Shown here piece by piece: positions 26,345-46,263 of a stretch of 64,000 nt of DNA. This DNA is from a virus. The DNA lies in IMG/VR virus record IMGVR_UViG_3300036823_000156, positions 19,960 through 83,959 of that record, one strand, 5' to 3'. The notes beneath the pieces were generated by a model, which saw only the letters and a list, made by a program, of their open reading frames with translations, did no database searches and had not been told where the DNA came from. Made by a program: the position numbers and the translations under genes. The stretch's first letter is position 1. Each line of letters starts with the position of its first letter.

Positions 26345-27471
26345 TTCGTGGGCTCCTTCACCTTGAGAAACTTGCTGGACACCGCGTCGACCCGGTGGTC
26401 GGCGTACGGGTCCTCCTGGTGGTAGGCGTAGTGCTGGTAGGACTCCCAGTCGCCGCCCTGCTCGTGCAGCTCGCACATCTCGACGAACGGACAGAAGACG
26501 CACTCGCGCGTGGGGGTCTTGGTGATCGGCAACTCGCCGGTGCGCACCAGGTTCATGTGCTCGACCTCGTCCTGGATGCGGTCAAGCTGGATCTGGCGCT
26601 CCTTGGCGGTGCGCCGGATCGTGGTGCGCAGGAACAGCGGTGCCGGCTGGACCTTGCTGACCTCGCCCAGCACCTGCAGCATGAGTGCCGCCGCGATGGA
26701 CTCCAGGCCGTCCTTGGACAGCTTCTTCAGGTCGGCCTCGGTCCAGCCGTCCAGCCCGGTCAGCGCCGCGATGTAGTGCGGCTTGGTCGGCTGGTTGGTG
26801 GCCAGACCCTGCTCGGTGCGCGGCCGGTCGTCGGGCATCCCCTTGCGCATGAAGTTGTACTCGATGCCGTACAGGGATTCCTTCGGGCCGATCTTGCCCT
26901 GGTGCCGCAGCTCGTGCGTGGCGACCGCCCAGTACGACCCGGCCTGGTCGTCGAGCACCAGGTGCGAGGTCGAGATGGTGGCCGCGGTCTTGTGCTCCAT
27001 GAGCTTGATCTTGCCGTCAGCGTGGTCGCGGATGACGCCGTCGAACGTGCCGACGTAGTTGATCACCGGCGAGGGCCGTCCAATGAGGACATGGAAGGCG
27101 TACTCCGGTGAGATCACCTCCCACGACGGGTCGCCCCGGTAGCGCTGGACGTAGCCCTCCATCATGGCCGCGCCCAGCTTCTTCGCATCCACCCACTCGG
27201 CCTGTTCCGGATCGCCGGTGCCCCGGTTGTCCCGGATGAAGGCCAACGTGTCGCCGCAGTAGCGCTCCCACGTCTCGCGCGGGTCGGCGCCCCGGACCAT
27301 GCCGGGCGGGTAGTACTCGGCCAGCGCGAGGTGGATGCCGGTGCCGAACCACAGGGCATCCGGCTTCACCGCGTTGGTCCGCAGGCCCATCCGGTAGGAC
27401 CAGAACCATTGCTGGATGCAACGTTTGAACGAACCGCGCTCGCTGGTGCGCAGGTAGGGCAGATCGTTCAT
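26341..27471 (-). CDS. Cas4/RecB-like PD-(D/E)xK exonuclease
   Basis: S.R..F.RC, GTGIH, GTFD...EHKT, C-terminal C..CPF...C. Confidence 0.85.
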   Translation of the reverse strand: MNDLPYLRTSERGSFKRCIQQWFWSYRMGLRTNAVKPDALWFGTGIHLALAEYYPPGMVRGADPRETWERYCGDTLAFIRDNRGTGDPEQAEWVDAKKLGAAMMEGYVQRYRGDPSWEVISPEYAFHVLIGRPSPVINYVGTFDGVIRDHADGKIKLMEHKTAATISTSHLVLDDQAGSYWAVATHELRHQGKIGPKESLYGIEYNFMRKGMPDDRPRTEQGLATNQPTKPHYIAALTGLDGWTEADLKKLSKDGLESIAAALMLQVLGEVSKVQPAPLFLRTTIRRTAKERQIQLDRIQDEVEHMNLVRTGELPITKTPTRECVFCPFVEMCELHEQGGDWESYQHYAYHQEDPYADHRVDAVSSKFLKVKEPTK

Positions 27472-27472
27472 C

Positions 27473-27793
27473 TCAGTCTTCCGGCCGCAAGGCGGGGTCG
27501 TCGAGCACCTGGTCCTCGGGGACGCCCTTGCGAGTGGCGTAGGCGTGCCGGGCGTTGCCGCTCCTACACTTCGGGCAGCGGCAGTAGTAGTTGTTGTAGG
27601 AGTTGAGGACGCCGTGCTCCGGAGCGTCCGGTGCCCACATGAACTCCTGGTCGTGCAGCTCGGCGCGCTCGGCCTGGGTGAAGACCATGCGCTGCGCGTT
27701 CTCCAGGTCGTCCCAGCCCGGCGGCATCGAACCGGCCCGGGACAGAACACGTGCGTCGCGTCGTTTCTCGCGTAGTTCGGCCGTGTTGGGCAT
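27473..27793 (-). CDS. Hypothetical Zn-binding protein
   Basis: HG...YNNY.CRC.KC motif. Confidence 0.6.
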   Translation of the reverse strand: MPNTAELREKRRDARVLSRAGSMPPGWDDLENAQRMVFTQAERAELHDQEFMWAPDAPEHGVLNSYNNYYCRCPKCRSGNARHAYATRKGVPEDQVLDDPALRPED

Positions 27794-27805
27794 GGGTACG
27801 CCTCT

Positions 27806-28447
27806 CTAGAATTCGACTTCGCCCGGCTGCAGGACGCCCGCGGACCGTCCCCGCCGCTTGGTCGACCGGGTGGGGGCCGGGGTCACGCTGGCCCGCACCG
27901 CGACCGTCTCGGTCTTCGGCGCGGCGGCGCGGCGGGCGGCCCGCCGTTCGGCCAGGGTCGTCCGAGCCTTGGCGGGCGTGGACGGCGCGGCGGCCTTCGC
28001 AGCGCGCTTCGCGGCTCGCTCCTGTTTCTGCTCTTCCTGGGCCTTGTAGGCCGCGATGAACGCCTCGCGCACGTTGATCGCGATCCGGCCACGAGGGGCG
28101 ACCTCGTAGCCGTGCTTGACCGCCCACTGGCGAATCGCGATGGCCGAGAATTTGTCGGTGATCTCGGGCGAGGACGTGACCTTGCCGGGCTTTTGGGGCG
28201 CACGCTTGGGTTCGCTGGTCGCGTACTGCACGGCGCCGTTGTGCTTGTCGGTGGCGTCGGCGTACTCCTTCGAGCCGACCCACGCCTGTCGCGCGGTGCT
28301 CTGCGCGAGGTGGATGCCCAACTCGAACATGCGTCGGCCGGTCCGCGACATCTCCAGCCCGGCCTGCTGGACGAACCATTCCGCTTCGTCGGTCTCGATC
28401 GGCTTGGGACCACTTTCAATGGCCCGCAGAACCCGTTCCTCCGCCAT
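27806..28447 (-). CDS. Lsr2-like DNA-binding protein with basic tail
   Basis: AIRQWAVKHGYEVAPRGRI matches the Lsr2 C-terminal AT-hook-like domain. Confidence 0.8.
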   Translation of the reverse strand: MAEERVLRAIESGPKPIETDEAEWFVQQAGLEMSRTGRRMFELGIHLAQSTARQAWVGSKEYADATDKHNGAVQYATSEPKRAPQKPGKVTSSPEITDKFSAIAIRQWAVKHGYEVAPRGRIAINVREAFIAAYKAQEEQKQERAAKRAAKAAAPSTPAKARTTLAERRAARRAAAPKTETVAVRASVTPAPTRSTKRRGRSAGVLQPGEVEF

Positions 28448-28477
28448 GCTTTCCTCCCGTGTCGACTGTCAGCGAAG

Positions 28478-28490
28478 AATGTACACTATC
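28478..28490 (-). promoter_or_regulatory. Conserved GTTAGTGTACATT-type motif (variant)
   Basis: aatgtacactatc; includes the TAG stop of the upstream gene. Confidence 0.6.
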
Positions 28491-29094
28491 GTTGCCAGGC
28501 CTCCACGGCGATGACCGCGTCGTCGTTGTCACGCAGCTGCAGCGAGTAGGTGTCGTTGTCGACTCCCAGCACGGCGTGCACGATCAGGTTTTTGCGCACA
28601 ATGCCTTCGACCCAGTGACCGTCGACCGACGCCCAGACCTTCTCGAAGTACAAGCCCTGCGGGGCACGGTGTACGACCAGCCCGTTCGACACCGGCTTCG
28701 GCTTCGCCTCCAACTCGGACAGACGCTGGATCAATGGCTTGGCCCGCAGCCAGTACAGCGCGCTGGTGGCGAAGTGCTCCCGCAACATCTCGTCCGGGCT
28801 CCACGAGCGACCCCGACCGCCCAGTTCGGTGTCACGCGCGGCCACGCACAACATCGCCTCCTGCGTCTGCAGGTAGCCGGCCCGCCGCTCGAACCACGCG
28901 ATCAGGTTCGCCCGATGTCCCGGCGCCAGCTGCTTGACCTTCAGCTTGCGTCCGTCGGCCGGGTACCACCACTTCTTCTGCTCCAGCAACTCCAGTGTGC
29001 TGGGACGGCCGTCGGCGTTCCAGCCGGACGTCGCGTTCTTGTAGTCCTCATCCCGGTCGAACGTCACGTCCTCGTAGTCCGTGTCGTCACCCAC
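28486..29094 (-). CDS. Hypothetical protein
   Basis: GTG start abutting the helicase stop; AAGGAG RBS. Confidence 0.6.
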   Translation of the reverse strand: MGDDTDYEDVTFDRDEDYKNATSGWNADGRPSTLELLEQKKWWYPADGRKLKVKQLAPGHRANLIAWFERRAGYLQTQEAMLCVAARDTELGGRGRSWSPDEMLREHFATSALYWLRAKPLIQRLSELEAKPKPVSNGLVVHRAPQGLYFEKVWASVDGHWVEGIVRKNLIVHAVLGVDNDTYSLQLRDNDDAVIAVEAWQR

Positions 29095-30854
29095 TAGATC
29101 AACTCCTTCGCTCTGCGCCCGTCGAGGGCGAACTTCTGGACGGCATCCGCCGCGCGGTTGTCGTTGTGGATCTTGTGCTCGATCGTGCCGGTCGAGCCGA
29201 GGTACCAGATGGTGACCTGGTGCATGCGGGACACGCGGTGCGCGCGGTCCTCGACCTGCTCCTGGTCGTCGGGCACCCAGGTCTGGTCCAGGAAGATCAC
29301 GTCGTCGGCCGCGTCCAGGGTCAGCGAGACGCCACCGGCCGTGGTGGTCAGCAGCATGACCTGCGGGGCGCCGTCCTCCTGGAACGAGCGCTTCGCCGTG
29401 GCCCGGCGGGCCTTGGACACGTCGCCGGTGATCTTGGTGACCTGCACGCCCGCCTCGATCAGCGCGGTCTCGAACAGGTCGATGACCGAGCTGAACTGGC
29501 TGGCGACGATCACCTTCTGGTCGGCGTCGCGCTCGGAGAGCCAGTTGAGCAACCACTTCAGCTTGTTGGAGGGCGTTTCGGGAACGAAGTTGCCCTCGTC
29601 GTCCAGCCGACCGGCGGTGGTGGCGAACTGCTTGAGCCGGGTCAGCACGGCCAACACGCCGTCGGCCTGCAGCTCCCCGCCGTCCAGCTCGACCAGGGCG
29701 CGCTGGCGCATGTCCTTGTAGATGCGGGCCTGCTCGGGCTCCATGTCCAGCCAGATGGCGCCGTTGCCGGCGTAGAACTTCGGCGGCAGGTCGGGGGCCG
29801 CGTCCTTCTTCGTGCGGCGCAGCATCACCGAGTCCAGCTCGGCGTAGAACTCCGGCTTGCGGTGGATCTTCAGGCCGTCGATGATCCGGCCGCGGCCCGC
29901 CGCGTCGTCGTAGACCTCGAACCAGTGCTCGACCCACGTCCAGTACGAGCGGTATCGCTCGGGGTAGAGCCAGTTCAGCGTGCCCCACAGGTTCTCCAGC
30001 TTGCCGCGGAACGGCGTGCCCGACATCGCGATCCGCAGGCCACCCTCGGCCACCTTCAGTCGACCCAGGCCCTGCCGACGGGCGGCCTGCTTGTAGATGG
30101 CACCGGTGCGGGTGATCAACATCTGGTGCGACTCGTCAGCGATGATCGAGGCCCACTCGACGTCGTGCAGCTGGGTGTAGCCGTCCTTGAGACGGAACAT
30201 CTCCGGGTTGCACACCAGCCACTTGCGGCCGGGCGCGGCCAGGAACGCGGCGATCGTCTTCTCGCGCCTGACCCGGCCGCCGCAGCAGGCGAACACCGCG
30301 TCGCCGGGGACCCACCGGTGCAGCTCGGGCTCCCAGGTGAGGTCGACCGCGGTGGCCGGGGCGATGACCAGGTTCGGCCCGTCGATCCCGCTCTCCAGTA
30401 CGGCGCCGATCGACTGCAGCGTCTTGCCCAGGCCGGGCTGGTCGCCCAGCAGGCCGCAGCGCGAGGAGGCCAGCCAGGCCGCGCCGACCTGCTGGTAGGT
30501 GCGGGTGCTCATCGCCTCGGCGAGCACCGGGAAGAGGGTGCGCACGCGATCCACGTCGGCGCCCTCCTGCCCGGCGATCGCCGCGATCCGCTCGCGGCGC
30601 TGCTTCTCCTCGATCGCCCACGCGGTCAGCGCCGGGCCGATCGAGAGCTGCGTGCCCCACACCCGACGCAGGTCGGTGCAGCTGTACCACGCCAGTGGGT
30701 AGGTCCAGGCCTTGTGCGTCTTGTTCCAGGAGTGGCCTTGCACCGACTTGCACAGGCGCTTCATCTCCTCGAACGCCGCGTCGTCGCCGTAGGGGACGCG
30801 TGGCGTCCGGAGGTGGATCCGGCCGCTGACCAGTTCGATGGCGGGAAGCTGCAT
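29094..30854 (-). CDS. SNF2-family DNA helicase
   Basis: GDQPGLGKT, IADESH, SGTP, Q.EDRAHR. Confidence 0.92.
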   Translation of the reverse strand: MQLPAIELVSGRIHLRTPRVPYGDDAAFEEMKRLCKSVQGHSWNKTHKAWTYPLAWYSCTDLRRVWGTQLSIGPALTAWAIEEKQRRERIAAIAGQEGADVDRVRTLFPVLAEAMSTRTYQQVGAAWLASSRCGLLGDQPGLGKTLQSIGAVLESGIDGPNLVIAPATAVDLTWEPELHRWVPGDAVFACCGGRVRREKTIAAFLAAPGRKWLVCNPEMFRLKDGYTQLHDVEWASIIADESHQMLITRTGAIYKQAARRQGLGRLKVAEGGLRIAMSGTPFRGKLENLWGTLNWLYPERYRSYWTWVEHWFEVYDDAAGRGRIIDGLKIHRKPEFYAELDSVMLRRTKKDAAPDLPPKFYAGNGAIWLDMEPEQARIYKDMRQRALVELDGGELQADGVLAVLTRLKQFATTAGRLDDEGNFVPETPSNKLKWLLNWLSERDADQKVIVASQFSSVIDLFETALIEAGVQVTKITGDVSKARRATAKRSFQEDGAPQVMLLTTTAGGVSLTLDAADDVIFLDQTWVPDDQEQVEDRAHRVSRMHQVTIWYLGSTGTIEHKIHNDNRAADAVQKFALDGRRAKELI

Positions 30855-30861
30855 GCCGGCC

Positions 30862-30874
30862 AATGTACACTAAC
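30862..30874 (-). promoter_or_regulatory. Conserved GTTAGTGTACATT motif
   Basis: Exact aatgtacactaac on + strand. Confidence 0.7.
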
Positions 30875-31121
30875 CTTCCGCTACGGGTCCAGTCGGTTCC
30901 GGCCCGGCGTGCTCACCGAGGCTGAGATGGACGTGGGTGAGCAGCATCAGCTTCCGGGCGCCCTCCTGCACCTCCGCCAGCTCGTTGGCCGTGAGCTTCT
31001 TCAGCCCATGCGCCGCCATCGCGTTGCCCTCGGCGTTCTTGTCCATCAGACAAGTCAGGGCGGTCGCCGCCGACACCTGCGCGTCGGGCAGGGTCAGGAT
31101 CTTGTGGGCGTAGGCGTCCAT
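30870..31121 (-). CDS. Hypothetical protein
   Basis: GAGGAG RBS. Confidence 0.6.
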   Translation of the reverse strand: MDAYAHKILTLPDAQVSAATALTCLMDKNAEGNAMAAHGLKKLTANELAEVQEGARKLMLLTHVHLSLGEHAGPEPTGPVAEG

Positions 31122-31317
31122 TCCGCTCCTCTTCCAGTGAGACGATCAACTGCCGGAGGGATCCGGCAATCGCTTCGAAGTCCAGCACGTACTCCGCATG
31201 CACGCGCTGGTCGCGCTTGCGGGCGATCCGCAAGATGTTCTCGCAGGTGTCCAGCGCCCGCCGGGCGAGCGTCAGATGCAGTGGGTACAAAGGTGTCCTT
31301 TCCAGACGGTTCAGAAC

Positions 31318-31892
31318 CGCACGGGCATTACTAAATGGCGTGCGCCAGCATGGTTGGCTCGTGCGGAGCGAGGTCCGCCCGGCCGGCGGGTCTACTTGGC
31401 GCACAGGAGGTCATGGCCAACCGGGCGGAGCGAGTTCCCAGCCTGCGTCCCGCTATGGGTACACGATAATCACTGGCAGACCGGGAGGTGGAGCCGCCCG
31501 GCTGGCGACCGATTTCTGGAGCGCGCTCCGTACTGGCCAGCCGGGCGGAGTAGGTGATCGAGCGGTCAATTTTGGTGTGTCGCGAAGTAATGGCTCGATC
31601 GGAAGGGGACCGCCCGGCTGGCGGGGTCGGGGTGGAGTGCGATGTGAGCTGGCCAACCGGGCGGAGTGGTTCCGAGGCGGGACACATTTGGGGTGCGCCA
31701 CGAAATGGCCTCGGTGTGTTGGGCCGCCCGGCTGGTGGCATTAGTTGGAGTGCGACACTCTGATGACCAACCGGGCGGAGTAGATGACCGGGCATAACGA
31801 TATGGAATGCGAATCGCGTTGGCCCGATCAGAAGGGACCGCCCGGCTGGCGGTTCAAGATGGGTTGTGTCGGATTTCTGGCCAGCCGGGCGG
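31318..31892 (-). ncRNA. TIGR-like stem-loop guide array, about 10 units (downstream of Tas-like gene)
   Basis: About 58-nt periodic hairpin units: stem-CCA-N8/9-(CRCnnn)-CCA-N9-stem on the - strand; alternate units share the CCGCCCGGYTGG stem. Confidence 0.8.
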
Positions 31893-31896
31893 AGTC

Positions 31897-32823
31897 TCAG
31901 GCCGCGTCCTGCAGGTCGGGCGGTCCGAAGCCGTGGGCGACGTGGATGGCGCGGGACTGCCGCCACAGGTCGCGCAGGACCTCCTTGGACACGCACCGCA
32001 GGGCGCGAGCGTGGATGTGGTTCTTCGACAGCGGGGTGCCGGCGAGCGCGGGGCTGCCCGAGGGTCCGCATCGGACGCAGGCCAACTCGTGCACGGCGTC
32101 GGCGTAGAACTCCTTCTCCTGGTCGTAGACCTCGCGGTACGGGCCGCCGGACTTCATGCAGGACTCGGAAATCATCCGGCAGCGCATCCGCGCGGTGACC
32201 GACCAGTTGACCTTGGTGCCCTTGCGGCGGGCCGGAGCCAGACCGGCGATCACGCTGTAGCCGGAGTAGCTCCACAGCTCGGCGATCGTGCGGGGGCGGC
32301 CCATCTTGACGTTCCAGTACGGATCCCCGATCGCGGCCAGCAGTCGACCGACCTGCTTGGCGCCCAGGCCCTTCTGCGCCTCGATCCAGCCGTACAGCGG
32401 GTGGTCCTGAATGGTCTTCTGCAGGTTCTTCGTCGCGTTGACCTCGGCCCGCTGCATCGGCGGCACGATCAGGCCCATCTGCCACACCATCGGGTTCCAG
32501 CCCTTGGGCATGGTGAAGATCTTGCGGTTGGCCGCGGCCTGGATGGACAGGTGCGTCTCGACCTCGTCGAGCACGGCCTGCACGAGGTCGAAATCCTCCT
32601 CGTCCTCGGGCACGTGGATGTTCGGGGGCAGGAAGCCGAAGCCGACGTCCTTGCCGTCCTTGTTCATCCGGGGCAGCACGAGCTGGCGCAACCGGTTCTG
32701 GTTGGCGATGCGCACGCGCTCCATGTCGTCGAGCACGTCGGCGGCCATCGTCAACGTGGGCGGCGACATCAGTTCGGCGAGGGGATTCGGTACCGCTTCG
32801 ACCTCTTCGATCTCTTCTGTCAT
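31897..32823 (-). CDS. Nop/IS110-C-terminal-domain RNA-binding protein, nuclease-less (TasA-like)
   Basis: RIANQNRL coiled coil, HPLY.W....GLG.....LLA.IGD, LWSYSG, RRKG...NWS, YR..YD..K, H.HARALR...K..L.DLW; no DEDD RuvC or HNH seen. Confidence 0.75.
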   Translation of the reverse strand: MTEEIEEVEAVPNPLAELMSPPTLTMAADVLDDMERVRIANQNRLRQLVLPRMNKDGKDVGFGFLPPNIHVPEDEEDFDLVQAVLDEVETHLSIQAAANRKIFTMPKGWNPMVWQMGLIVPPMQRAEVNATKNLQKTIQDHPLYGWIEAQKGLGAKQVGRLLAAIGDPYWNVKMGRPRTIAELWSYSGYSVIAGLAPARRKGTKVNWSVTARMRCRMISESCMKSGGPYREVYDQEKEFYADAVHELACVRCGPSGSPALAGTPLSKNHIHARALRCVSKEVLRDLWRQSRAIHVAHGFGPPDLQDAA

Positions 32824-32850
32824 GCACTTTCTCCTTGGGTGGGTGGGGAT

Positions 32851-33216
32851 TCCGACTGACGGGGAGTGCTGGTCGCACGATCGCTGATGGTCAGTCGGAG
32901 CGGTGGTCCGCTCGGCCGGCGGGATGACTTGTGTCGTGCTTCCGTGTTGGCCGACCGAGCGGAACTCGGTCACCCGGCCGACGTCGTCAGCGTTGGTTCG
33001 CCGCGCGCTGTTGGTCGACCGGGCAAATCTCTTCGGGTGGAACCGCCCGACTGGCGAAAGGTGTTTGGGCAGCGATCGCTCCTGGCCAGCCGGGCGGAGT
33101 CGGGCCCGTTGCCGACACGACGATTGTGAGTCGAGTCGTGCGGTGGTCGGCAACGGGAGTGGGCGTCCGGCCAACGTTCACCCGTGGGGCGCATGGGTCG
33201 AGCTGGTCGGCCGGAC
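32851..33216 (-). ncRNA. TIGR-like stem-loop guide array, 6 units (upstream of Tas-like gene)
   Basis: Six hairpins with paired TGG (CCA on - strand) boxes about 18 nt apart; starts just after the conserved motif at 33220. Confidence 0.78.
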
Positions 33217-33219
33217 TGA

Positions 33220-33232
33220 AATGTACACTAAC
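33220..33232 (-). promoter_or_regulatory. Conserved GTTAGTGTACATT motif upstream of the TIGR-like array
   Basis: Exact aatgtacactaac. Confidence 0.7.
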
Positions 33233-33258
33233 ACAGGTCGGTGTAGCGGTAATGATCC

Positions 33259-33692
33259 AAGCCTCGCCTCGCCTGGCCGCGCCCTGCCCAGCCTCGCCCC
33301 GCCATGCACCGCCTTGCCTAGCACCGCATCGCCAAGCGCGTCCGGCAGCGGAGTCGAACCGCTGCTACGACCATCCGGACAACCATTCTCCCAGCCTTGC
33401 CATGCCGCGCCATGCCTCGCCGGGCACCGCCCAGCCTCGCCACGCCGAGCGTGCTGCCCCCGGGAGTCGAACCCGAGATGCGACCATCGCAGCTACCATT
33501 CTCCTAGCCACGCCGCGCACCGCCGCGCCCTGCCGCGCCGAGCCACGCCATGCCAAGCCACGCCCTGCCGAGCGTGCTGCCCCCGGGAGTCGAACCCGAG
33601 GTACGACCATCGCAGCCACCATTCTCCTAGCCTGGCCCAGCCGCGCCCTGCCCTGCCGAGCCACGCCCTGCCCTGCCGAGCCACGCCACGCC
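33259..33692 (-). ncRNA. Array of four (GGC-NN)11-15 pentamer tracts separated by mini tRNA-like elements (VIPR-like guide RNAs)
   Basis: Tracts 33259-33333, 33392-33446, 33505-33569, 33628-33692; separators carry GGTTCGACTCC T-arms. Confidence 0.8.
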
Positions 33693-33705
33693 CTGCATCT
33701 TCGCG

Positions 33706-34191
33706 CTAGGCGCGAAGTTTCTTGGGAGCGTTGCGCTCCAATTCTGCCACTCGCTCGGCGAGTGACCGAGTTTCGCGGCGGCGGCGGCCGTTGATCTCGG
33801 CCTTGCGAGCTGCTACGCGTTCCTCGAAGTCCACCTCGGCCCGCCGTTCGTGTACCAGTTCGGCACGACGGCGTTGTGAGGCATTGATCTTGGCGGCGTG
33901 ACGGTCGTCAGCGCGTGCAGCTTTCTTGCGTTGCCTGCCGATCAGCGGCACGGCGGCGTTCGGCTCCAACACCAGCCACCCGATGTTCTCCTTGGTTTCG
34001 ACCGTGTTCTTGCCGGCACGACCGAGTTCCAGATTGGCCTTGATCATCGCGCCTTGGACCGAGTTCCGGCTGGGCGCCTTGCAGTCCTCGATAGCCTGGG
34101 CATAGGTGATGACGCCACCCACCTCGGTCTCGCACACGATGTCGTACAGGATCCGCCAACGTGCCTTGCCGTTCGCAGGTTCGATGTTCAT
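33706..34191 (-). CDS. Accessory protein, putative winged-HTH plus basic coiled coil
   Basis: ATGA overlap with the RAMP-like gene; GGVITY...V....NIGW wing-like pattern. Confidence 0.6.
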   Translation of the reverse strand: MNIEPANGKARWRILYDIVCETEVGGVITYAQAIEDCKAPSRNSVQGAMIKANLELGRAGKNTVETKENIGWLVLEPNAAVPLIGRQRKKAARADDRHAAKINASQRRRAELVHERRAEVDFEERVAARKAEINGRRRRETRSLAERVAELERNAPKKLRA

Positions 34192-34763
34192 TGAGTCACC
34201 TCGACCGTGAACCTCCCGTAGAACCGGCGGAACGTGCCGACACCGATCATCTTGCCCGCCTTGGTCGCGATATCTTGGAAGTCCTCGGTCGACAGCACGC
34301 GGTCGTCGACGTCGATCTCGAACGCGCAGGACCACTGCGGGAAGATCGGCCGGACGCGCGGGATGCGCTTGCCCTCCACATTCACCATCAGGCGGCTGAC
34401 GTACGGACTGGTCGGCCCGTCGCCCCAGAGACCGTCGACATCGCGCGGCCCGTCATAGGACAGTGGCGCCTTCAGATCAAAAACCTGAAGAGCTTGAGCG
34501 ACTTTCTTGCCCGACCGGGTGATGGACCCCGCCTCCATCAGCGCCCGGAAGATGTTGTCACCCGGCAGGTACGGACCGAGCTCGGCGTTGTGGTACAGCG
34601 CCCCGACCCAGGACAACCGGTCGATCTCGGCCCTGTCCTCGTCGGTCTTGTTGGTTCGTTTGGACGTCAGTTTCTTTACGGCCCTGGTGATCGGCTCATC
34701 GGGGTCGGCAAGTCTGATGTTGTGCATGATGAGCGGCGCGATGCCGGTCAGCTCGATTCGCAT
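34188..34763 (-). CDS. Stand-alone RAMP/Cas7-like protein (Vipr-like)
   Basis: N-terminal IELTGIAPLIMH strand, PYLPG, RVRPIFPQW and C-terminal G-rich loop GVGTFRRFYGRFTV. Confidence 0.72.
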   Translation of the reverse strand: MRIELTGIAPLIMHNIRLADPDEPITRAVKKLTSKRTNKTDEDRAEIDRLSWVGALYHNAELGPYLPGDNIFRALMEAGSITRSGKKVAQALQVFDLKAPLSYDGPRDVDGLWGDGPTSPYVSRLMVNVEGKRIPRVRPIFPQWSCAFEIDVDDRVLSTEDFQDIATKAGKMIGVGTFRRFYGRFTVEVTQ

Positions 34764-34830
34764 GACTTTCCGTTCTGTGGTCAGTGTTTGACGGCAGTTC
34801 CGTCTCACTTCACATCGGACATTGTCCGAT

Positions 34831-34937
34831 CGTGCGGGCCGAGGACTCGAACCTCGGTGTGTGCCGCTCCCGCTTCCTAGCCTGGCCCCGCCAAGCCCTG
34901 CCCTGCCGAGCCACGCCCTGCCATGCCGAGCCCTGCC
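34831..34937 (-). ncRNA. (GGC-NN)12 tract plus mini tRNA-like element upstream of the RAMP-like gene
   Basis: 12 perfect pentamers at 34878-34937 followed by GCGGG...CCGAGG-TTCGAGT-CCTCGG-CCCGC-ACG. Confidence 0.8.
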
Positions 34938-34944
34938 TTGCAAG

Positions 34945-34978
34945 AATGTACACTAACGTAGGTCGGTGATCGCGTCAA
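34945..34978 (-). promoter_or_regulatory. SigA-like promoter containing the conserved motif
   Basis: TTGACG-17 bp-TAGTGT(ACATT) immediately before the first GGC-NN tract. Confidence 0.7.
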
Positions 34979-35420
34979 GTCCGACGGAGCGGAAAGCACT
35001 GTCCGCAAAGGTCAGAACGCGGCGGCCCATGCGAGTGCTGTAGACGTGGGTGGAGCGGGCATCCTTGGGCACGGTGGCCTTCTCGCGCAGACCGGTGAAC
35101 GTGTTGATCCACTCGATCTGCTTGCCGGCCAGGCATTCCGCTGCCGTGTTGTCGTCCATGGCCGCGAAGTCGTAGGTCGGCTCGCTGGTGCGCAGTGCGG
35201 TGGCCGCCGCGGCCGGGTCCAGGATCTGCTGGCGCCCCCGCACTTCGGGCGACTCGAACCAGGACTCCGAACTGGCGAAGCGCTCGCCGCGCCAGATCAG
35301 CTCCATCCGCTCACCCTCGCCGCGCCAGAACCGCATCCGGTAGTCGCTCTCGTAGCCCAGCTCGTCGTGCTCCCAGCCCATCTTGGTGGCCCAGTGCGCC
35401 AACTCCTCGGTGCCTTTCAC
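34953..35420 (-). CDS. Hypothetical protein
   Basis: Coupled ORF. Confidence 0.6.
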   Translation of the reverse strand: MKGTEELAHWATKMGWEHDELGYESDYRMRFWRGEGERMELIWRGERFASSESWFESPEVRGRQQILDPAAAATALRTSEPTYDFAAMDDNTAAECLAGKQIEWINTFTGLREKATVPKDARSTHVYSTRMGRRVLTFADSAFRSVGLDAITDLR

Positions 35421-35737
35421 GCCGGATACCCTCTCTCCATCAGCTCGACCGGGCGCTCGCCGACGTAGCCCTGGCACGCGCACCGCACATCGACGTCGTG
35501 CCAGTCCACATTGGTGGCCCACTTGCGTTGTTGGTGCGTGACCTGGCACGGCCCGCCGTGGAGCAGCTCACGCGTGCTGGTGACGAGGTGCTCGTGCGCA
35601 CTGATGGGATCTCCGCACGTGCACCGGTAGCTCGGCGGCTTCGGGTCCTGGTGGTCCCGCTTGTAGTAACCGGTCACGCGGCCGACGACGAAGGCCACCA
35701 CCGTCGCCGCCGCGAGAACGATGTCGAGCAGGTGCAT
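35417..35737 (-). CDS. Small membrane-anchored Cys/His protein
   Basis: N-terminal TM; C.C.D...H...C...C.C motif. Confidence 0.55.
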   Translation of the reverse strand: MHLLDIVLAAATVVAFVVGRVTGYYKRDHQDPKPPSYRCTCGDPISAHEHLVTSTRELLHGGPCQVTHQQRKWATNVDWHDVDVRCACQGYVGERPVELMERGYPA

Positions 35738-35739
35738 GG

Positions 35740-36630
35740 TCAGTTGCCGCCCACGACGACCGGCGACCCCTGCGGGATCGGGATGATCTTGACCTTGCCG
35801 TCGGTGATGGCCTGGTTGACGGCCTGCTGTTCCTGGTAGGCCTGGTAACCGGCCACGCCGCCCGGGAAGTTCTTGGCCGCCTGCTCGTCCACGGCGGCGG
35901 CCTGCTGCCGCAGCACCGCGGCCTGCTTGGCCGACAGACCGGCCTGCAGCTGGGGCTGGATGCCCGGCTTCTGCAGCAGCACCACGTCGATGTCGATCAG
36001 GTTGGTGCCCAGCGTGAGCTGGTTGAGGATGCGCGGGATGTCCTGCTGCACCTGCGTGGACCACGAGGTGGTGGCCTGCGCGGAGGTGTAGAGGTCCTGC
36101 CAGCCGAAGTTCAGCGCCTCGGTGTCACTGGCCCGGTCGACGGCCGCGCCCAGGTAGTTCTTCAGCATCTCGTCCCAGCCGCCGGGCAGGTCCGCGTCCG
36201 CGTCGGTGGGCAGCGCGTCGTACTTCTTGCCGATCAGCTCCCAGAACGCCTGCAGGCGCCCGCCGGGCCAGGTGCGGCCGGTCGAGTCCTTCCACGGCAC
36301 GCAGGAGGTGTTGAGGGTGAACTTGACCGTGCCGGTCACGCTGATCTGCTGGCCGTCCTTGGTGGCCGAGGTCAGCGCCGGGGAGTCCTCACCCTTGCCG
36401 GTGCCGAAGGACCAGTCGCGCTGGCCCAGCGGTGCGTAGTACTCGGTGTCGTTGACGTCGCGAGCGCCGTGCGTCGAGGGACCGGTGCACTGGACGAACT
36501 TCACGCTGTCGAAGGGGCCGCCGCCGTACTGCAGGGCGACCTGGGAGGCCGTGGTGTTGACGATCGAGCAGGCCGCGACGGCGGCCAGCACGACGGGGGC
36601 GAGGACTGCTGCTCGCAGGTACCTTTTCAC
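35740..36630 (-). CDS. SPFH/band-7-like lipoprotein
   Basis: Lipobox VAAC; TKDGQ.ISV.GTV.F; C-terminal coiled coil. Confidence 0.65.
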   Translation of the reverse strand: MKRYLRAAVLAPVVLAAVAACSIVNTTASQVALQYGGGPFDSVKFVQCTGPSTHGARDVNDTEYYAPLGQRDWSFGTGKGEDSPALTSATKDGQQISVTGTVKFTLNTSCVPWKDSTGRTWPGGRLQAFWELIGKKYDALPTDADADLPGGWDEMLKNYLGAAVDRASDTEALNFGWQDLYTSAQATTSWSTQVQQDIPRILNQLTLGTNLIDIDVVLLQKPGIQPQLQAGLSAKQAAVLRQQAAAVDEQAAKNFPGGVAGYQAYQEQQAVNQAITDGKVKIIPIPQGSPVVVGGN

Positions 36631-36893
36631 AGCTGTCGTATGTCCTTTCTGGACTTCTGGATGATCTCCTTGACCTTGCTGGCCAGGGGGTGATCGAGGT
36701 CGCTGTACTCGGCGGCGGCCATGTCGATCTCGTACAGGGCGTCCTGGCGCAGGTTGTTCTGCGCCTCGACGCGCCGCAGGTGCCGCCGGTTGATCCCGGC
36801 CCGCCGCCCGAGCAGGAAGTAGGCCGCCCACATCAGCACCGCCAGCACGGCGACCGCACCGACACTGAGCCCGGCCAGATCCGCGAGCTTCAT
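36627..36893 (-). CDS. Small membrane protein
   Basis: One TM helix, coupled. Confidence 0.6.
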   Translation of the reverse strand: MKLADLAGLSVGAVAVLAVLMWAAYFLLGRRAGINRRHLRRVEAQNNLRQDALYEIDMAAAEYSDLDHPLASKVKEIIQKSRKDIRQL

Positions 36894-37321
36894 TCCTCGT
36901 CCTCCGGCTGTGCCGCTGGGGCAGCACCCACAACCTCGTGCGACATGATGCGGATGCGGTGGCGGCTCGGCCCGGCAGCCTCAACGGCGTCTTGCTCCGT
37001 CGCGTAGACGGCGTACACTTCATCGTCCATTTCGCTGCTACCAGCGAGCCAGACGACCGCCGGGGCAGCGAGCAGACCGGCGGCGGCCAGAGTGCGGGCG
37101 ACTTCCTCGGCGTATTGGTGCGCGGCAGTGCGTGGCCCGTCGTAGGCGCCACCCCACATGGCGCGGAACACCGCTCGCGCTGCTCTTTCGGTGAGGTCGG
37201 TGGCGAGGTGTAACTCGGATCGGGTGAACAGCTCCTCGGCGTCGGCCGGCACGGTGTCGCGGGTGCCACCCCGGATGAGGTCCTGCGACGGGGACCACCA
37301 GAGGCGGATGCGGGTGGCCAT
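36890..37321 (-). CDS. Hypothetical protein
   Basis: Coupled ORF. Confidence 0.55.
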   Translation of the reverse strand: MATRIRLWWSPSQDLIRGGTRDTVPADAEELFTRSELHLATDLTERAARAVFRAMWGGAYDGPRTAAHQYAEEVARTLAAAGLLAAPAVVWLAGSSEMDDEVYAVYATEQDAVEAAGPSRHRIRIMSHEVVGAAPAAQPEDEE

Positions 37322-38519: not shown

Positions 38520-39299
38520 TCATTCGGCTCCTTCCCAGGTTGCCTCGTAGATGGTGGCCATCAGGCCGTTGGCCCAGTCGCGGTCGGGCACCGTCCGCAA
38601 CGGCGACTTCTCGATCGCTTCCTGGATGTCCAGCTCCCAGTCCTCGATCATCGACAGCACCTCGTCCAGCGTGTAGACGCCGGTGCGGATGTGGTGCAGC
38701 AGGGTGCGCTGGGGCTCGGGGATCGGCAGCGTGATGCGGCCGGTGGACAGCAGCTCGTGTCCCTGGAAACCCAGGCGCACCGCGTGGTAGGCGAACTTCG
38801 TGTCGAAGCCGTACTCGGCGATCAGCTCGGGACGGTTGGTGTGCTGCGACTTCAGGCCCAGCATGCGCAGGCGCTGGTTGTGCAGGTAACCCAGGAACTT
38901 GTGCGTGATCTGCTTGGACAGGATGTGTTCGATCGCGTGGTTCGAGCGCAGCACCCGACCCCAGTGCGTGATGGTCACGGTGTCCTGCTTCGGCGCGAAC
39001 AGCGGCATGATGACGGTGGGGTTGCCGTCCAGCGCCAGGCGCATCCACTTGCGCAGCCCGTAGACGTTCAGATCGAGATCGCCCGGTCCGGAACGCACGT
39101 GCTGCGGCTGGGTGCGGAACTCGTACTGGTCGAAGCGCTTCAGCCCGAGCACGTACTCCTTGGGTTCGACGCAGATGCCCATCTCGTCGCGGTCGTCGGT
39201 GTCCTCGACGGTCACCCCGTACAGGCCGGAACCGACCTGGGTCCGCAGGATCGTGAACCGGTTGGCGATGTCCTCGCGGTCCGGCGTCTGGTACTTCAT
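38520..39299 (-). CDS. Pol-beta superfamily nucleotidyltransferase
   Basis: VGSGLYG...DTDDRDEMGI, GNPT, YGFDTKFAYHAVRL. Confidence 0.8.
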   Translation of the reverse strand: MKYQTPDREDIANRFTILRTQVGSGLYGVTVEDTDDRDEMGICVEPKEYVLGLKRFDQYEFRTQPQHVRSGPGDLDLNVYGLRKWMRLALDGNPTVIMPLFAPKQDTVTITHWGRVLRSNHAIEHILSKQITHKFLGYLHNQRLRMLGLKSQHTNRPELIAEYGFDTKFAYHAVRLGFQGHELLSTGRITLPIPEPQRTLLHHIRTGVYTLDEVLSMIEDWELDIQEAIEKSPLRTVPDRDWANGLMATIYEATWEGAE

Positions 39300-39505
39300 C
39301 TCAGCCACCGTTGGCCCCCTTCCAGTTCTGCTCGATGGTGCGCGCGATCTCCACGACGTCGTCGTCGGCCGACACGCCCGCATCGGCGTGCTCCAGGCCG
39401 ATCCGGGCCAGCGCCAGCAAGGCCTCGCGCTGCCGGGAGGACAGCAGATCCCGAATCAACGAGCTGGCGCTGATCTTCTTGAACTCGGTCTGCTTCGGGA
39501 TGCCC

Positions 39506-40230: not shown

Positions 40231-40243
40231 AATGTACACTAAC
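40231..40243 (-). promoter_or_regulatory. Conserved GTTAGTGTACATT motif
   Basis: Exact; TTGCAA lies 18 bp upstream of TACATT. Confidence 0.7.
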
Positions 40244-41175: not shown

Positions 41176-42813
41176 TCAGGCGGAATAGAACGGCCAGTTG
41201 GCGTTCTGCCCGCGCTCCAGCAGTTCGATCTGTCGGAACGCGGAGTCGGTCAGACCGCTCATCACGTGCCGGTTGGCCGCGCCCGACGGGGCGTGCCCGC
41301 GCCGGTATCCGGCCAGATTGTAGGTGTAGAGCGGGGTGCTGTCCGGCAGGGCCGAGCCGGGATCTTTGCCCCAGTAGTCGCTGGCCTGCTCGTCGGTCAG
41401 GATGACCACGCGGTCGTGCTTGTCGAAGTTCCGGGCCACCGCCTGGGTGGTTTCCGTGCCGCCCGCCAGGAAGTAGCCCGCACTCTTCCACCGGGCGATG
41501 CCACTGAGCAGCGACTCTTCCTTGCGGAACGGGAACTTCGTCGAGGCGTTGGAGAACGACACGACGGTCGGCTGATCGCACCGATGGGCCAGGGCCAGGC
41601 CGAACAGCACCGCCGCGTCCCAGCGGGCCAGCGTGCCGTCCTTGCTGAACGTCGCGTCCATCGACGCGGACGTGTCCACCAGGATCAGTGTGCGACCCTC
41701 CAGCGTCGTGATGTTGTCCAGCGAGTTCTGCAGAGCGCGTTCCAGCGCGCCCTGCCACCGGCCACCGCTGCCGACGGCGCGGGCACTGGAGAGCAGCTGC
41801 ATCGGCCACTGGCGGGCGGCCACGATCTCGGCCGGGTCGGACAGCCGCGCCACGACGTGCTTGACCGAGGCGGGAGAGATGCCGGCCTGGTCGAAGTTGC
41901 GCAGGTTCATCCGCAACGCCTGGAACCCCATCGACGGGATCAGCGCGTCCCACACCGGGCCGGTCATCTCGCCCTGCAGCCAGCCCGACACGGTCTCCCA
42001 CGTCATGCCGGCCGACGCGATCTTGTTGGCCGCCTTGACCGGGTCCTTGGTGAACAGCCTGCGCCGCTTGTCCAGGTCCCACTGCTGCATCTTCCGGTTG
42101 GCCGTGATCATCTTCAACTCGGCCGGGATCACGGCGTCCTTGTGCTTGTAGTGGCGGTCCAGGATGTAGGAGAACAACGCGGACTGCTCGGCGTCACGCG
42201 GTCGCGGCCGGCACAACGCGATCACCCGGGCGAAGTCGAACTCCCGTTCGCCGGTGTCGTACTTGAGGAACGCGCGCTGCGTGTACATCCGGGTGGCCGC
42301 CGAGGCCGCGCCCCGACGCCAGGAGATCGGCAGGGTGTCCTTGCCCGGGTGCGTGCTGCGCCAGTAGGCCAGGGCCTCGCCGGGCTCGTCCGGGCGCTGC
42401 AGGGCCGCGTCGAGGAACAGGCGGCCGGAGAACTCCTCGTGCCCTTCGTAGCGCTTGAGGCCGTCCAGCGCGTGCGCGGCGGCCACCATCGGGGCGGTGC
42501 GCAGGAATCCCTCGGTCCGCAGCCACTTGATCCACGCCATGGTCCACTGTGGATTCAGCGCGGCGACGTTGCGGGTGAGGGTGGCGAAGCGCGAGTCGCG
42601 GTCTTTGGCGGTCTCGTAGAAGGTGTCCTGCCCGACCATGTTCTGGACCGAGAGCAGGAACAGCTCGGACTGCAGGCCGCGGGCGTAGCCGGGGCCGCCC
42701 TCCTCGGTGCGTCCGGTCGGCGTCGACTCGGAGAGGATCGGGGACATGCCCGGCGCGGACGGCGGCGCCGTCCGCGCCGTGCGGGCGGAGGCCGGTGGAT
42801 TGAAACGAGCCAT
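41176..42813 (-). CDS. rsr: Ro60/Rsr-like TROVE-domain RNA-binding protein with vWA domain
   Basis: T.EGG.GY...ELF, TFYE, RPDE, TWE, ALRMNLRN, ILVDTSASM (MIDAS), GGT, LTDEQ. Confidence 0.9.
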   Translation of the reverse strand: MARFNPPASARTARTAPPSAPGMSPILSESTPTGRTEEGGPGYARGLQSELFLLSVQNMVGQDTFYETAKDRDSRFATLTRNVAALNPQWTMAWIKWLRTEGFLRTAPMVAAAHALDGLKRYEGHEEFSGRLFLDAALQRPDEPGEALAYWRSTHPGKDTLPISWRRGAASAATRMYTQRAFLKYDTGEREFDFARVIALCRPRPRDAEQSALFSYILDRHYKHKDAVIPAELKMITANRKMQQWDLDKRRRLFTKDPVKAANKIASAGMTWETVSGWLQGEMTGPVWDALIPSMGFQALRMNLRNFDQAGISPASVKHVVARLSDPAEIVAARQWPMQLLSSARAVGSGGRWQGALERALQNSLDNITTLEGRTLILVDTSASMDATFSKDGTLARWDAAVLFGLALAHRCDQPTVVSFSNASTKFPFRKEESLLSGIARWKSAGYFLAGGTETTQAVARNFDKHDRVVILTDEQASDYWGKDPGSALPDSTPLYTYNLAGYRRGHAPSGAANRHVMSGLTDSAFRQIELLERGQNANWPFYSA

Positions 42814-42856
42814 GAGTGCTCAACTCCTTGTCAGAGAAGGAGGAGCGGCAAGCCAA

Positions 42857-42985
42857 GAGTCCGAGAAAAGGTGGTCGAAGGTATTGTCGCGCTCTACCGC
42901 TGAGCTACCCACCGAAGTGGGGCGGGATTCGAACCCGCGACCTCGTCCTTACAGGGGAAGTAACCCTCAACCTGACTGCGGACTC
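42857..42985 (-). ncRNA. yrlA: YrlA-type Y RNA (permuted tRNA-like domain)
   Basis: Terminal stem GAGTCCG/CGGACTC; T arm GCGGG-TTCGAAT-CCCGC, then CCCAC-TTCG-GTGGG, then D arm TAGCTCAGCGGTAGAGC; directly upstream of Ro60. Confidence 0.85.
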
Positions 42986-46259: not shown

Positions 46260-46263
46260 AATG

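Follow-up and report, generated by a model that had tools for sequence, protein, structure and literature searches.

Two accessory units lie side by side on the minus strand of an uncultured soil phage, and both open with the same 13-base motif. Which RNA-guided systems do they encode, do the two belong together, and is the motif a boundary at which modules are exchanged? These questions were addressed in the 64-kb window, the whole stretch of 64,000 nucleotides analysed here. In our reading, to which we assign a probability of about 0.8, the island consists of two independent accessory transcription units of an actinophage-like virus, each carrying a published nuclease-free RNA-guided DNA-binding system, VIPR or TIGR-TasA. 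Both units are headed by the motif, and the VIPR unit is a recombining cassette.

Anatomy and relatives of the two modules

Along the minus strand, the motif (34957) is followed by vrRNA1, a 191-aa RAMP ORF, a 161-aa ORF and four more pentamer tracts. A second copy (33232) precedes six hairpins, a 308-aa ORF, nine to ten hairpins and small ORFs, and a third (30874) leads into an SNF2 helicase gene. This confirms the order given in a sequence-only reading of the region (motif at 34945, GGC-NN/RAMP module, motif at 33220, stem-loop/Nop module, small ORF, motif at 30862, replication genes). The features are as follows.

34945–34957, minus: motif heading the VIPR unit; its inner TAG terminates the upstream ORF 35549-34953
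34832–34940, minus: vrRNA1, 13 YNNGG units (34939-34875) plus tRNA-like tail
34188–34763, minus: vipr, 191-aa RAMP (Cas7-like) protein, phrog_4652; PDB 36pp_D match, RAMP fold
33706–34191, minus: vap-like accessory gene, 161 aa; 4-nt overlap with the vipr stop
33338–33695, minus: vrRNA2, vrRNA3 and vrRNA4 (14, 14 and 12 units), each ending in a tRNA-like tail, head to tail with hardly any spacer
33233–33335, minus: fifth pentamer tract, 16 units (3 degenerate), no tRNA-like tail; then an 11-nt stretch repeating the 3' end of ORF 35549-34953
33220–33232, minus: motif heading the TIGR-TasA unit; right-hand partner of a 24-nt direct repeat (22/24) bounding the VIPR cassette
32851–33216, minus: upstream TIGR sub-array, 6 stem-loop tigRNA units
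31897–32823, minus: tasA, 308-aa Nop-domain protein, phrog_4285; TasR/TasH matches
31374–31892, minus: downstream TIGR sub-array, 9 clear stem-loop units (about 9-10)
30870–31121, minus: small ORF, 83 aa, no family; TAG stop inside the next motif copy
30862–30874, minus: motif heading the SNF2 helicase; ATG 8 nt behind the motif

The pentamer repeats, resolved by Tandem Repeats Finder into periods of 10, 15, 20 and 25 with a 123-nt super-period, make up five tracts with 12-16 YNNGG units each; one tract precedes vipr-vap and the other four follow it. The 191-aa protein matched PDB 36pp_D, 'SUSP1 Vipr protein' (E 2.3e-22), and Csm3/Cas7 were the closest folds to its AF2 model (pLDDT 89). Its residues H14, K30, R138 and R179 align with H17, K33, R138 and R179, the G/target-contact residues of SUSP1 Vipr (10.64898/2026.04.26.720927). 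As judged by sequence and model, module 1 belongs to the VIPR (Viral Interference Programmable Repeat) systems and is closest to type II of Escherichia phage SUSP1 (10.64898/2026.04.26.720920, 10.64898/2026.04.26.720927, 10.64898/2026.10.15.759431; PDB 36pp). In both phages the RAMP protein has about 190 aa, a small vap gene comes next, and the pair is preceded by one vrRNA and followed by an array (10.64898/2026.04.26.720920). The vrRNAs consist of 12-16 YNNGG units in which GGY stays the same and NN varies, and have a constant structured 3' tail. Both systems are phage-borne, dispensable and devoid of a nuclease gene. The differences are the moderate identity of the Vipr proteins (about 31%), a changed G-loop in which the residues D177 and W178, important in SUSP1, are T and F and are kept as such within the own subclade, and the high-GC soil phage as carrier. 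The 161-aa protein showed weak pairwise similarity to the proteins encoded downstream of vipr in LittleE (E 3e-7) and wV8 (E 3e-4), and vap homologs lie directly 3' of vipr in 24 other loci. Vipr, its partner gene and the pentamer arrays recur in Trine, LittleE and wV8.

The tails also set the locus apart. Whereas the SUSP1 tail is a pseudoknot, the tail found here resembles the top half of a tRNA with an acceptor-like stem and a T arm; in vrRNA1 it comprises a 5-bp acceptor-like stem, an 11-nt linker, a 6-bp T stem and a UUCGAGU loop. Such tails are present in 44 of 286 arrays and 19 of 75 loci. RNAalifold recovered both stems, with compensatory changes in 10 of 11 pairs among tails that had been pre-selected for pairing. 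No word beginning with 'tRNA' was found in four VIPR papers. The constant 3' tail that each vrRNA carries in this clade mimics a tRNA top half, and it probably allows host enzymes that process tRNA ends to cut the head-to-tail array into single guides. The tail-less fifth tract is a probable recombination scar.

In the second module, the 308-aa protein matched TasR (PDB 9mty_A, E 8.6e-16) and TasH (E 4e-4). Its model is all-helical (pLDDT 89.8), and Foldseek ranked TasR/TasH first, IS110-type recombinases next and then Nop5/Prp31. A Pfam search of TasA gave no match, and no nuclease domain was found in it. Fifteen dual-spacer hairpins surround tasA and at least three more are distal. In all 18, box C reads CCA or, where a U-A pair compensates, UCA; CCA/CAA stands in the centre, box D is CG, and two variable segments measure 8-9 nt each. 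This anatomy fits the published stem-loop definition (10.64898/2026.09.09.750476). Sequence and structure model both identify module 2 as a stem-loop TIGR-TasA system (Faure et al., Science 2025, PMC12045711; Xu et al. 2026, 10.64898/2026.09.09.750476). As in these, the system resides in a phage, its Nop-domain protein has a coiled coil and lacks a nuclease domain, hairpins stand in tandem to either side of the gene in sub-arrays split by other DNA, and each hairpin loop consists of two box C-spacer-box D blocks joined by a linker. Unlike the published systems, one conserved 13-bp stem strictly alternates with variable stems (seen in the downstream sub-array), the C-terminal part of TasA holds an invariant H/C/C/H cluster, the CUU processing motif occurs at some unit junctions only, and a third sub-array is 13 kb away:

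45742–46261, minus: distal TIGR sub-array, at least 3 units with matching stem and box pattern, outside the reported island

The coordinates of the sequence-only reading miss this sub-array. Family membership and anatomy are established by these comparisons, which also bear out two earlier statements, namely that the modules are RNA-guided and mutually unrelated (RAMP/Cas7-like VIPR, Nop-domain TIGR-TasA) and that neither has a recognisable nuclease domain.

Polymorphism of the VIPR cassette

A 36.9-kb contig from a second soil run (X2) joins position 33219 to 34945 with a 13-base overlap that is the motif. Missing from it are exactly those 1725 bases, the whole VIPR unit, that separate the motif copy at 33220 from the one at 34945; its flanks are more than 99% identical to the window (6.1 kb with 16 differences, 2.0 kb with 15 differences). 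TIGR-TasA is intact on this contig, and about 1 kb of additional sequence is present inside the upstream TIGR array. In low-depth contigs of the same run vipr and vap are still present. With GC3 values of 0.84 and 0.75, vipr and vap also fall below their neighbours (0.88-0.96). The VIPR unit is clearly a motif-bounded cassette with presence/absence polymorphism, and the comparison with a related phage proposed earlier revealed module absence at a motif boundary. Deletions of vipr-vap have been reported among SUSP1 relatives; new here are the exact deletion of the unit, the extra TIGR-array sequence and the independence of the two modules.

The evidence consists of Logan contigs instead of raw reads, and metagenome joints can derive from repeats or other organisms, so that the junction might be an assembly artefact or belong to a different phage and say nothing on cassette mobility. 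We regard this as highly improbable. The Logan assembly word is 31, and the shared repeat of just 13-24 nt is below it. Moreover, a single contig covers both flanks, 63 letters are matched on the short side of the junction, and a different phage would still be a close relative without the module exactly at the motif.

The motif copies form direct repeats, so that recombination between them may lead to gain or loss of whole units. Promoter-early stem-loop (PeSL) cassettes of T4-type phages, reportedly described by Arbiol, Comeau and Krisch in 2010, and promoter-bounded morons offer a parallel. In these, repeated promoters flank accessory units, and recombination adds or deletes whole units with the neighbouring genes unharmed. 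A repeated promoter-like sequence flanks accessory units here too; it differs from PeSL in being another motif, with a putative promoter role and no stem-loop terminator partner seen.

Adjacency, common orientation and the shared head motif could indicate that VIPR and TIGR-TasA are one cooperating, co-selected two-layer system. Moreover, homologs of Vipr and TasA, with 81% and 59% identity respectively, were each found on an 11,916-base Logan contig, possibly the same one. These identities are, however, unequal, the VIPR-less variant retains TIGR-TasA, and a search of up to 10 kb around 96 other VIPR loci found no homolog of the present TasA. TasA relatives exist in Cluster A mycobacteriophages without Vipr, and vipr and tasA differ in GC3. 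Cooperation is therefore quite unlikely; the two modules are independent cargo.

Role of the 13-base motif

The motif reads AATGTACACTAAC on the plus and GTTAGTGTACATT on the minus strand. Exact AATGTACACTAAC copies start at 30862, 33220, 34945 and 40231, and near copies at 28478, 47866(-), 62943 and 63298(-). At up to two mismatches, the window contains 8 matches versus 0.06 expected, and the whole 84-kb record 11. Both RNA modules are headed by the motif as claimed before, but so are the SNF2 helicase and the units at 28490 and 40243, and a divergent 2-mismatch pair precedes the terminase operon. These copies rule out the motif as a special mark of the two RNA modules.

The seven best-placed copies are oriented like their downstream genes, and the two copies in which T8 is replaced by C point opposite to the genes around them. 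The motif includes TANNNT hexamers, the start of vrRNA1 is 7-10 nt downstream of it, and a sigma-70 promoter occupies the corresponding position in wV8. A consensus promoter scan found nothing, and -35-like hexamers upstream are inconsistent from copy to copy. None of the runs listed as containing this stretch was an RNA run. We infer that the motif is most likely a phage promoter, and the shared motif suggests co-regulation of the units.

Cluster A mycobacteriophage stoperators are 13-base asymmetric repressor sites that are oriented with transcription and often overlap stop codons. The motif shares length, asymmetry, orientation and frequent overlap with stop codons, its TAG being the stop codon of the upstream ORF in 4 of 5 replication-region copies. 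It might be mainly an operator through which a phage regulator shuts all units together, rather than a promoter. The perfect 6-bp palindrome TGTACA inside a near-palindromic 10-mer, 13 conserved bases exceeding the needs of a -10 hexamer, and the inverted pair in the divergent region before the terminase operon argue in this direction. Whereas stoperators number in dozens, the motif has only about 8-11 copies, and neither a repressor nor an integrase was recognised among 9 left-arm ORFs (genome 965-10187) in a non-exhaustive scan. Furthermore, vrRNA1 and the upstream TIGR array, both of them RNA-only units, directly follow the motif with no other promoter candidate. We consider a predominantly operator role possible yet doubtful; the two roles are not mutually exclusive. 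As to the proposed cassette-exchange boundary, the notion is supported for the VIPR unit, absent exactly between two motifs, but the motif resembles a general phage promoter that permits recombination by being repeated, and not a dedicated exchange site.

Proposed function and the Ro60 gene

Each unit begins at a motif copy most likely serving as promoter, as do the neighbouring replication units and the structural operon. Vipr protomers would coat the vrRNA, one per YNNGG unit, concealing GGY and exposing the NN pairs, which would read DNA by a 'two read, one skipped' rule and block transcription, with the vap product as a putative accessory DNA-binding partner. A TasA dimer would bind each hairpin RNA at the box C/box D pair, the two 8-9-nt spacers would pair with the two strands of the target, and silencing would occur without cutting. 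Recombination between direct motif copies would add or remove whole units.

Relatives of both systems act in RNA-guided transcriptional silencing, and VIPR also in phage-versus-satellite competition, according to published work. As both were published in 2025-2026 as nuclease-free RNA-guided silencers, the earlier idea of a silencing arsenal is largely in line with the literature. No natural target was found for any guide; 'inter-phage competition' therefore rests on the family and not on this phage. Nothing was found in support of 'anti-defence'. Guides acting on host genes or the phage's own genes, in host takeover or self-regulation, instead of rival mobile elements would agree with the lack of a rival-element target, and the published TasA discussion leaves host silencing and life-cycle regulation open (10.64898/2026.09.09.750476). 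Self-matches of vrRNAs and tigRNAs did not exceed shuffled controls, though, vr1, with up to 3 mismatches allowed, matched none of 401 genomes from the order to which Amycolatopsis belongs, and the natural VIPR targets described to date are satellites, prophages and other VIPR loci (10.64898/2026.04.26.720920; 10.64898/2026.10.15.759431). We consider host or self targets unlikely.

Ro60/Y RNA had been counted as a third ribonucleoprotein system of this phage. The Ro60 gene is located upstream of the two modules.

41176–42945, minus: Ro60 (TROVE+vWA) gene (protein 41176-42813) with a YrlA-like RNA match just upstream (42888-42945)

As in bacterial Ro60 (Rsr)/YrlA loci, a TROVE+vWA protein gene has a YrlA-like match directly upstream on the same strand, and an RlaP gene is nearby. 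The RNA match (E 1e-6) differs in scoring 42.7 bits, below the Rfam gathering score of 69, and in covering model positions 24-84 only. A Ro60 gene with a sub-threshold Y-RNA-like element is thus present, but as a separate unit outside the island that is not headed by the motif, and Ro60 is an RNA quality-control type of ribonucleoprotein, not a silencer.

Two RNA-guided modules and their proteins

The sequence-only reading of this DNA had placed two unrelated RNA-guided modules in one island, and searches against solved structures identified both: module 1 matched the VIPR protein 36pp_D ('SUSP1 Vipr protein') and module 2 matched TasR of the TIGR-Tas proteins. The island lies among the genes of 28–47 kb, which are carried on the minus strand. 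The elements of module 1 are as follows.

Features of the VIPR unit
34763–34188, minus strand: vipr, a 191-aa ORF (phrog_4652) with no Pfam family
34191–33706, minus strand: vap, a 161-aa ORF overlapping the vipr stop
minus strand, upstream of vipr: vrRNA1, 13 units
minus strand, downstream of vipr-vap: vrRNA2, vrRNA3 and vrRNA4, with 14, 14 and 12 units
minus strand, behind vrRNA4: fifth tract, 16 units, partly degenerate, without a tail

In a phmmer search Vipr matched 36pp_D over its whole length (residues 2–189, E 2.3e-22), and the best folds for its AF2 model (pLDDT 89.3) were Csm3/Cas7 RAMPs. The residues H14, K30, R138 (thumb R) and R179 (G-loop R), counterparts of SUSP1 H17, K33, R138 and R179, are kept. 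With D177 and W178 they make up the SUSP1 set that grips GGY and the base left unread. SUSP1 D177 and W178 are replaced by T and F in Vipr and its 70–83% identical subclade, and remoter relatives carry D-Y. In 24 other loci a vap homolog comes immediately after vipr, and vap itself displayed weak similarity to partner genes of the Felix O1-like phage wV8 and Mycobacterium phage LittleE. The Vipr homologs of these two phages and of Gordonia phage Trine all adjoin a second small gene and five-base repeat arrays, the unit being NNGGC in the actinophages and NNGGT in wV8.

The VIPR family is characterized by the Vipr protein, a minimal RAMP with RRM core, G-rich loop and thumb, by the accessory gene vap and by vrRNAs consisting of 9–16 tandem YNNGG units, in which GGY is fixed and NN varies, and a constant 3′ tail; along double-stranded DNA the NN dinucleotides recognize two bases and pass over the next, resulting in nuclease-free silencing of rival elements (10.64898/2026.04.26.720920,.720927, 10.64898/2026.10.15.759431). 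Every sequence-level feature of the family is present in module 1, which by these features is a VIPR system. A TRAP-like ring protein wrapping 5-nt repeats, G-quadruplexes and an IS110 bridge-RNA recombinase were discarded as candidates after Vipr and Tas had emerged from the comparison with solved structures.

Module 2 comprises tasA and its hairpin arrays, one of which lies far from the gene. It is listed together with Ro60, the third ribonucleoprotein gene of the region.

Features of the TIGR-TasA unit and Ro60
32823–31897, minus strand: tasA, a 308-aa ORF (phrog_4285, labelled 'transposase')
45742–46261, minus strand: distal TIGR sub-array, at least three units that share the conserved stem and the box C/D pattern; located on the upstream side of tasA at a distance of about 13 kb, beyond the Ro60 block
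41176–42813: Ro60, a TROVE+vWA protein (TROVE E 7e-11)

TasA matched TasR (9mty_A, E 8.6e-16) and TasH (E 4e-4) in sequence, as expected of a Tas protein with Nop domain and coiled coil. The structure predicted for it (pLDDT 89.8) consists of helices and very short strands only, and Foldseek returned TasR (E 2e-7) and TasH, followed by IS110-type bridge recombinases (IS621/ISCro4) and then Nop5 and Prp31. No Pfam family was found for the protein at E up to 0.1 and no RuvC or HNH nuclease domain was detected, which assigns it to the TasA type. An HNH remnant was dropped as a candidate, there being no match to an HNH model and the His residues lying within a helix of the structure model. H245, C249, C252 and H269 (within residues 245–271) are invariant in 23 family members and probably form a zinc site. 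Relatives of TasA occur in Cluster A mycobacteriophages and Gordonia phages.

Six hairpins precede tasA and nine clear ones follow it, with stems of 7–14 bp and loops of 28–31 nt. The box pattern was present in 18 of 18 units (these 15 and three distal ones), each with a loop of 28–31 nt and two variable segments of 8–9 nt. The first box C, made up of a closing C and the CA with which the loop starts, reads CCA in 16 units and UCA in two, the latter with a compensating U-A closing pair, while the loop centre is CCA or CAA. The last box D, in which the final C of the loop is followed by G, is CG in 13 units, TG in three, and CA and TA in one each, the last base of CA and TA compensating the UCA units. 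CTT was seen behind the conserved-stem unit at two of four junctions, the only ones read, by eye. The layout is the one published for stem-loop tigRNAs, where two spacers of 8–10 nt each lie between a box C (CCA/CAA) and a box D (CG/TG), and its motif sets are those of TIGRFinder; judged by its sequence, module 2 belongs to the stem-loop TIGR-TasA systems. For the tigRNA spacer pairs, searched in both arrangements with gaps of 0–4, matches in the genome of the phage itself did not exceed those of shuffled controls.

RNA-guided repression of transcription has been demonstrated for TasA proteins (10.64898/2026.09.09.750476). The proposal of apparently nuclease-free silencers holds in that TasA is without a detected nuclease domain and silencing by VIPR and by TasA is published for relatives; as members of these families, both modules would be expected to silence. 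The same proposal counted three ribonucleoprotein systems. VIPR, TIGR-TasA and Ro60, the last with a YrlA-like match just upstream (E 1.1e-6, under the gathering score), are indeed all present, but Ro60 is a different kind of ribonucleoprotein and is without the head motif shared by the two modules. Phage Ro-like homologs of Ro60 are 38–44% identical. Just downstream of Ro60 and the YrlA-like RNA lies a gene for RlaP (RNA repair pathway polymerase-beta family; 38520–39383), in a unit headed by the 40231–40243 copy of the motif; it may belong to an RNA-repair set.

vrRNAs and their tRNA-like tails

The five YNNGG tracts comprise 12–16 units each with a pyrimidine at Y in 88–93% of the units, and TRF reported periods that are multiples of 5. 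Four of the five tracts end in one conserved fold consisting of a 5–6-bp acceptor-like stem, a 10–11-nt linker with a conserved UGG, a 6–7-bp stem, a UUCGAsU loop, both 3′ strands and ACGC. This predicted fold is the top half of a tRNA, whereas the tail of SUSP1 VIPR is a pseudoknot. The tRNA-like tail was found in 44 of 286 arrays and 19 of 75 VIPR loci, mostly high-GC ones. RNAalifold predicted both stems from 38 tails and revealed compensatory changes in 10 of 11 pairs, the tails having been pre-selected for pairing. ARAGORN and Rfam at gathering threshold reported no tRNA and no family in the window; the tails are not tRNA genes.

Only about two bases separate a tail from the first unit of the next vrRNA, which suggests that guide ends are set by tRNA 3′-end processing. 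Host tRNA-end-processing enzymes would then mature the vrRNAs via their tRNA-like tails, a Cas6-free route that is not described in the VIPR papers examined; no word beginning 'tRNA' occurs in those papers. The tRNA-mimic caps thus suggest how guide arrays could be cut without a dedicated nuclease.

vrRNA1 (34940–34875) and vrRNA2 (33695–33625) have seven of their last nine NN dinucleotides in common, and vrRNA2 contains an internal duplication of four units. Both observations suggest that guides arise by duplication and drift. Directly before vrRNA2, an 8-bp hairpin (33699–33717) with the vap TAG stop in its loop may delimit the downstream vrRNA array at its 5′ end. When NN codes were read as DNA with one base skipped, no vrRNA scored above shuffled guides against its own genome and 97 loci. 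The exact 11-unit patterns of vrRNA1 and vrRNA3 were absent from IMG/VR, and the full vrRNA1 pattern at up to three mismatches gave no match in three genomes or, across the order to which Amycolatopsis belongs, in 401; the closest cultured Vipr homologs (57–59% identity) come from this genus.

Two related cassettes were inspected alongside. In Trine (MH271318.1, locus L001, 3571–4388) the annotated gene 40 spans three vrRNAs together with their tRNA-like tails; a start near locus position 3882 is probable for the vap-like ORF, and the CDS of the record looks over-extended. LittleE (JF937101.1, locus L002, 2660–4460) carries a complete VIPR cassette of gp34 (vipr), gp33 (vap), two vrRNAs upstream and three to four downstream. 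It is reversed and lies between tape measure and minor tail genes, a typical moron position.

The 13-base motif as putative promoter

The repeated motif said to head each module proved genuine, with eight matches at up to two mismatches in the window vs 0.06 expected. It reads AATGTACACTAAC on the plus strand, which is GTTAGTGTACATT on the coding strand, and occurs exactly at 30862, 33220, 34945 and 40231 and with one mismatch at 28478, 47866 and 63298; across the entire genome 11 copies stay within two mismatches. All five copies of the replication region are oriented with transcription and each heads a unit. vrRNA1 starts 7–10 nt behind the 34945–34957 copy, the upstream TIGR array right behind the 33220–33232 copy and the helicase ATG 8 nt behind the 30862–30874 copy, while ribosome-binding sites follow the copies ending at 28490 and 40243. 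In four of these five copies the ORF upstream ends at the TAG within the motif. Upstream of the window, at genome positions 7726–7758 (locus L106), the divergent region that separates a leftward operon from the terminase operon contains two 2-mismatch copies, arranged back to back with 7 nt between them.

The motif contains two overlapping TANNNT hexamers, TAGTGT and TACATT. Both are lost in two copies with a T8 to C change, and the same copies face against the local genes. A sigma-70 promoter is found at the equivalent place before vrRNA1 of wV8; a sigma-70 consensus scan found no promoter here. The 11-mer core occurred in none of the other fetched loci, and the 20-base pattern formed by gene end plus motif was absent from IMG/VR. 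We infer that the motif is a phage promoter, possibly with operator function because of the TGTACA palindrome it contains. Promoter activity, like RNA processing, is predicted here from family membership.

Presence and absence of the VIPR unit in soil runs

The window covers the rightmost 64 kb of a soil virus record in IMG/VR that is 83,959 bases long (estimated completeness 92%, G+C 66.9%). Identity of its proteins to those of known actinophages, for example Nocardia phage P3.1 and Mycobacterium phage Onyinye, does not exceed about 45%. The island had no megablast hit among 50,697 phage records. Close relatives of Vipr (best 39% identity) and of TasA were absent from IMG/VR, and the 80 VIPR loci of a metagenome scan were all at most 56% identical; other Vipr homologs reached 78–83% and TasA homologs 59–80%. 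The locus adds a high-GC soil phage with VIPR, TIGR-TasA and Ro60 together.

Window DNA was present in two soil runs from different studies, and the listing of such runs included no RNA run. Assembled contigs of the two runs, rather than raw reads, were aligned to the window at 27–42 kb. In one run (X2), a 36.9-kb contig (depth 20.5) covered 27000–33097 with 16 differences and 34945–36932 with 15. This contig joins 33219 straight to 34945, with the motif itself as the 13-letter overlap common to the two sides of the joint. The skipped 1725 bases correspond to exactly one motif copy and the whole VIPR unit. Two low-depth contigs of X2 (depth about 4) retain vap and vipr with 1–3 differences, and both forms are therefore present in the sample. 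The idea that the motif acts as a cassette boundary, to be checked by comparing relatives at the motif, is supported for the VIPR unit by a variant that is without it exactly between two copies. The bounding copies form a 24-nt direct repeat (22 of 24 identical), within which 11 nt repeat the 3′ end of the ORF upstream; the fifth pentamer tract is missing its tail exactly at the cassette boundary; and GC3 of vipr and vap is below that of their neighbours. Taken together, the data fit a VIPR unit that recombination at the gene-end-plus-motif sequence first brought in and later removed.

The same contig carries 1127 bases between the motif and 33097 vs about 122 expected. Since pieces of the extra DNA match conserved-stem TIGR units, this variant probably has an upstream TIGR array lengthened by about 1 kb. 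Presence or absence of VIPR and a probable length change of the TIGR array on a near-identical backbone point to a fast turnover of guide cargo.

The interpretation reached by the sequence-only reading was in part, and largely, right, and it recovered the right mechanism as far as family membership can check it. Both kinds of system had been published in 2025–2026, and the locus reveals no new kind. VIPR (2026) and TIGR-TasA (2025–2026) are very young families whose natural biology comes from a handful of model systems; what the locus adds is the exact motif-bounded presence and absence of VIPR, a variable TIGR array, tRNA-like vrRNA tails and a third, distal TIGR sub-array. Taken jointly, the motif would serve both as promoter and as recombination handle, by which self-contained guide-RNA weapons are swapped while the backbone changes by less than 1%, and host tRNA-end-processing enzymes would mature the vrRNAs; we regard this combined reading as tentative, with a probability of roughly three in ten. 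The phage lineage would exchange cargo at the motif, the VIPR unit moving in and out and the TIGR arrays growing and shrinking at conserved stems, and RNA-guided silencers would thus travel in a system of promoter-bounded cassettes.

The VIPR-less form retains TIGR-TasA, no TasA homolog was found in the fetched flanks of 96 other VIPR loci, and Cluster A phages with TasA relatives have no Vipr. On these grounds we conclude for the INDEPENDENCE of the two modules that VIPR and TIGR-TasA are independent cargo piling up in one accessory region. For a Vipr homolog (P0008, 81% identity) and likewise for a TasA homolog (P0093, 59%), the source given is a Logan contig of 11,916 bases; this may be a second co-carrier of both modules with unequal divergence.
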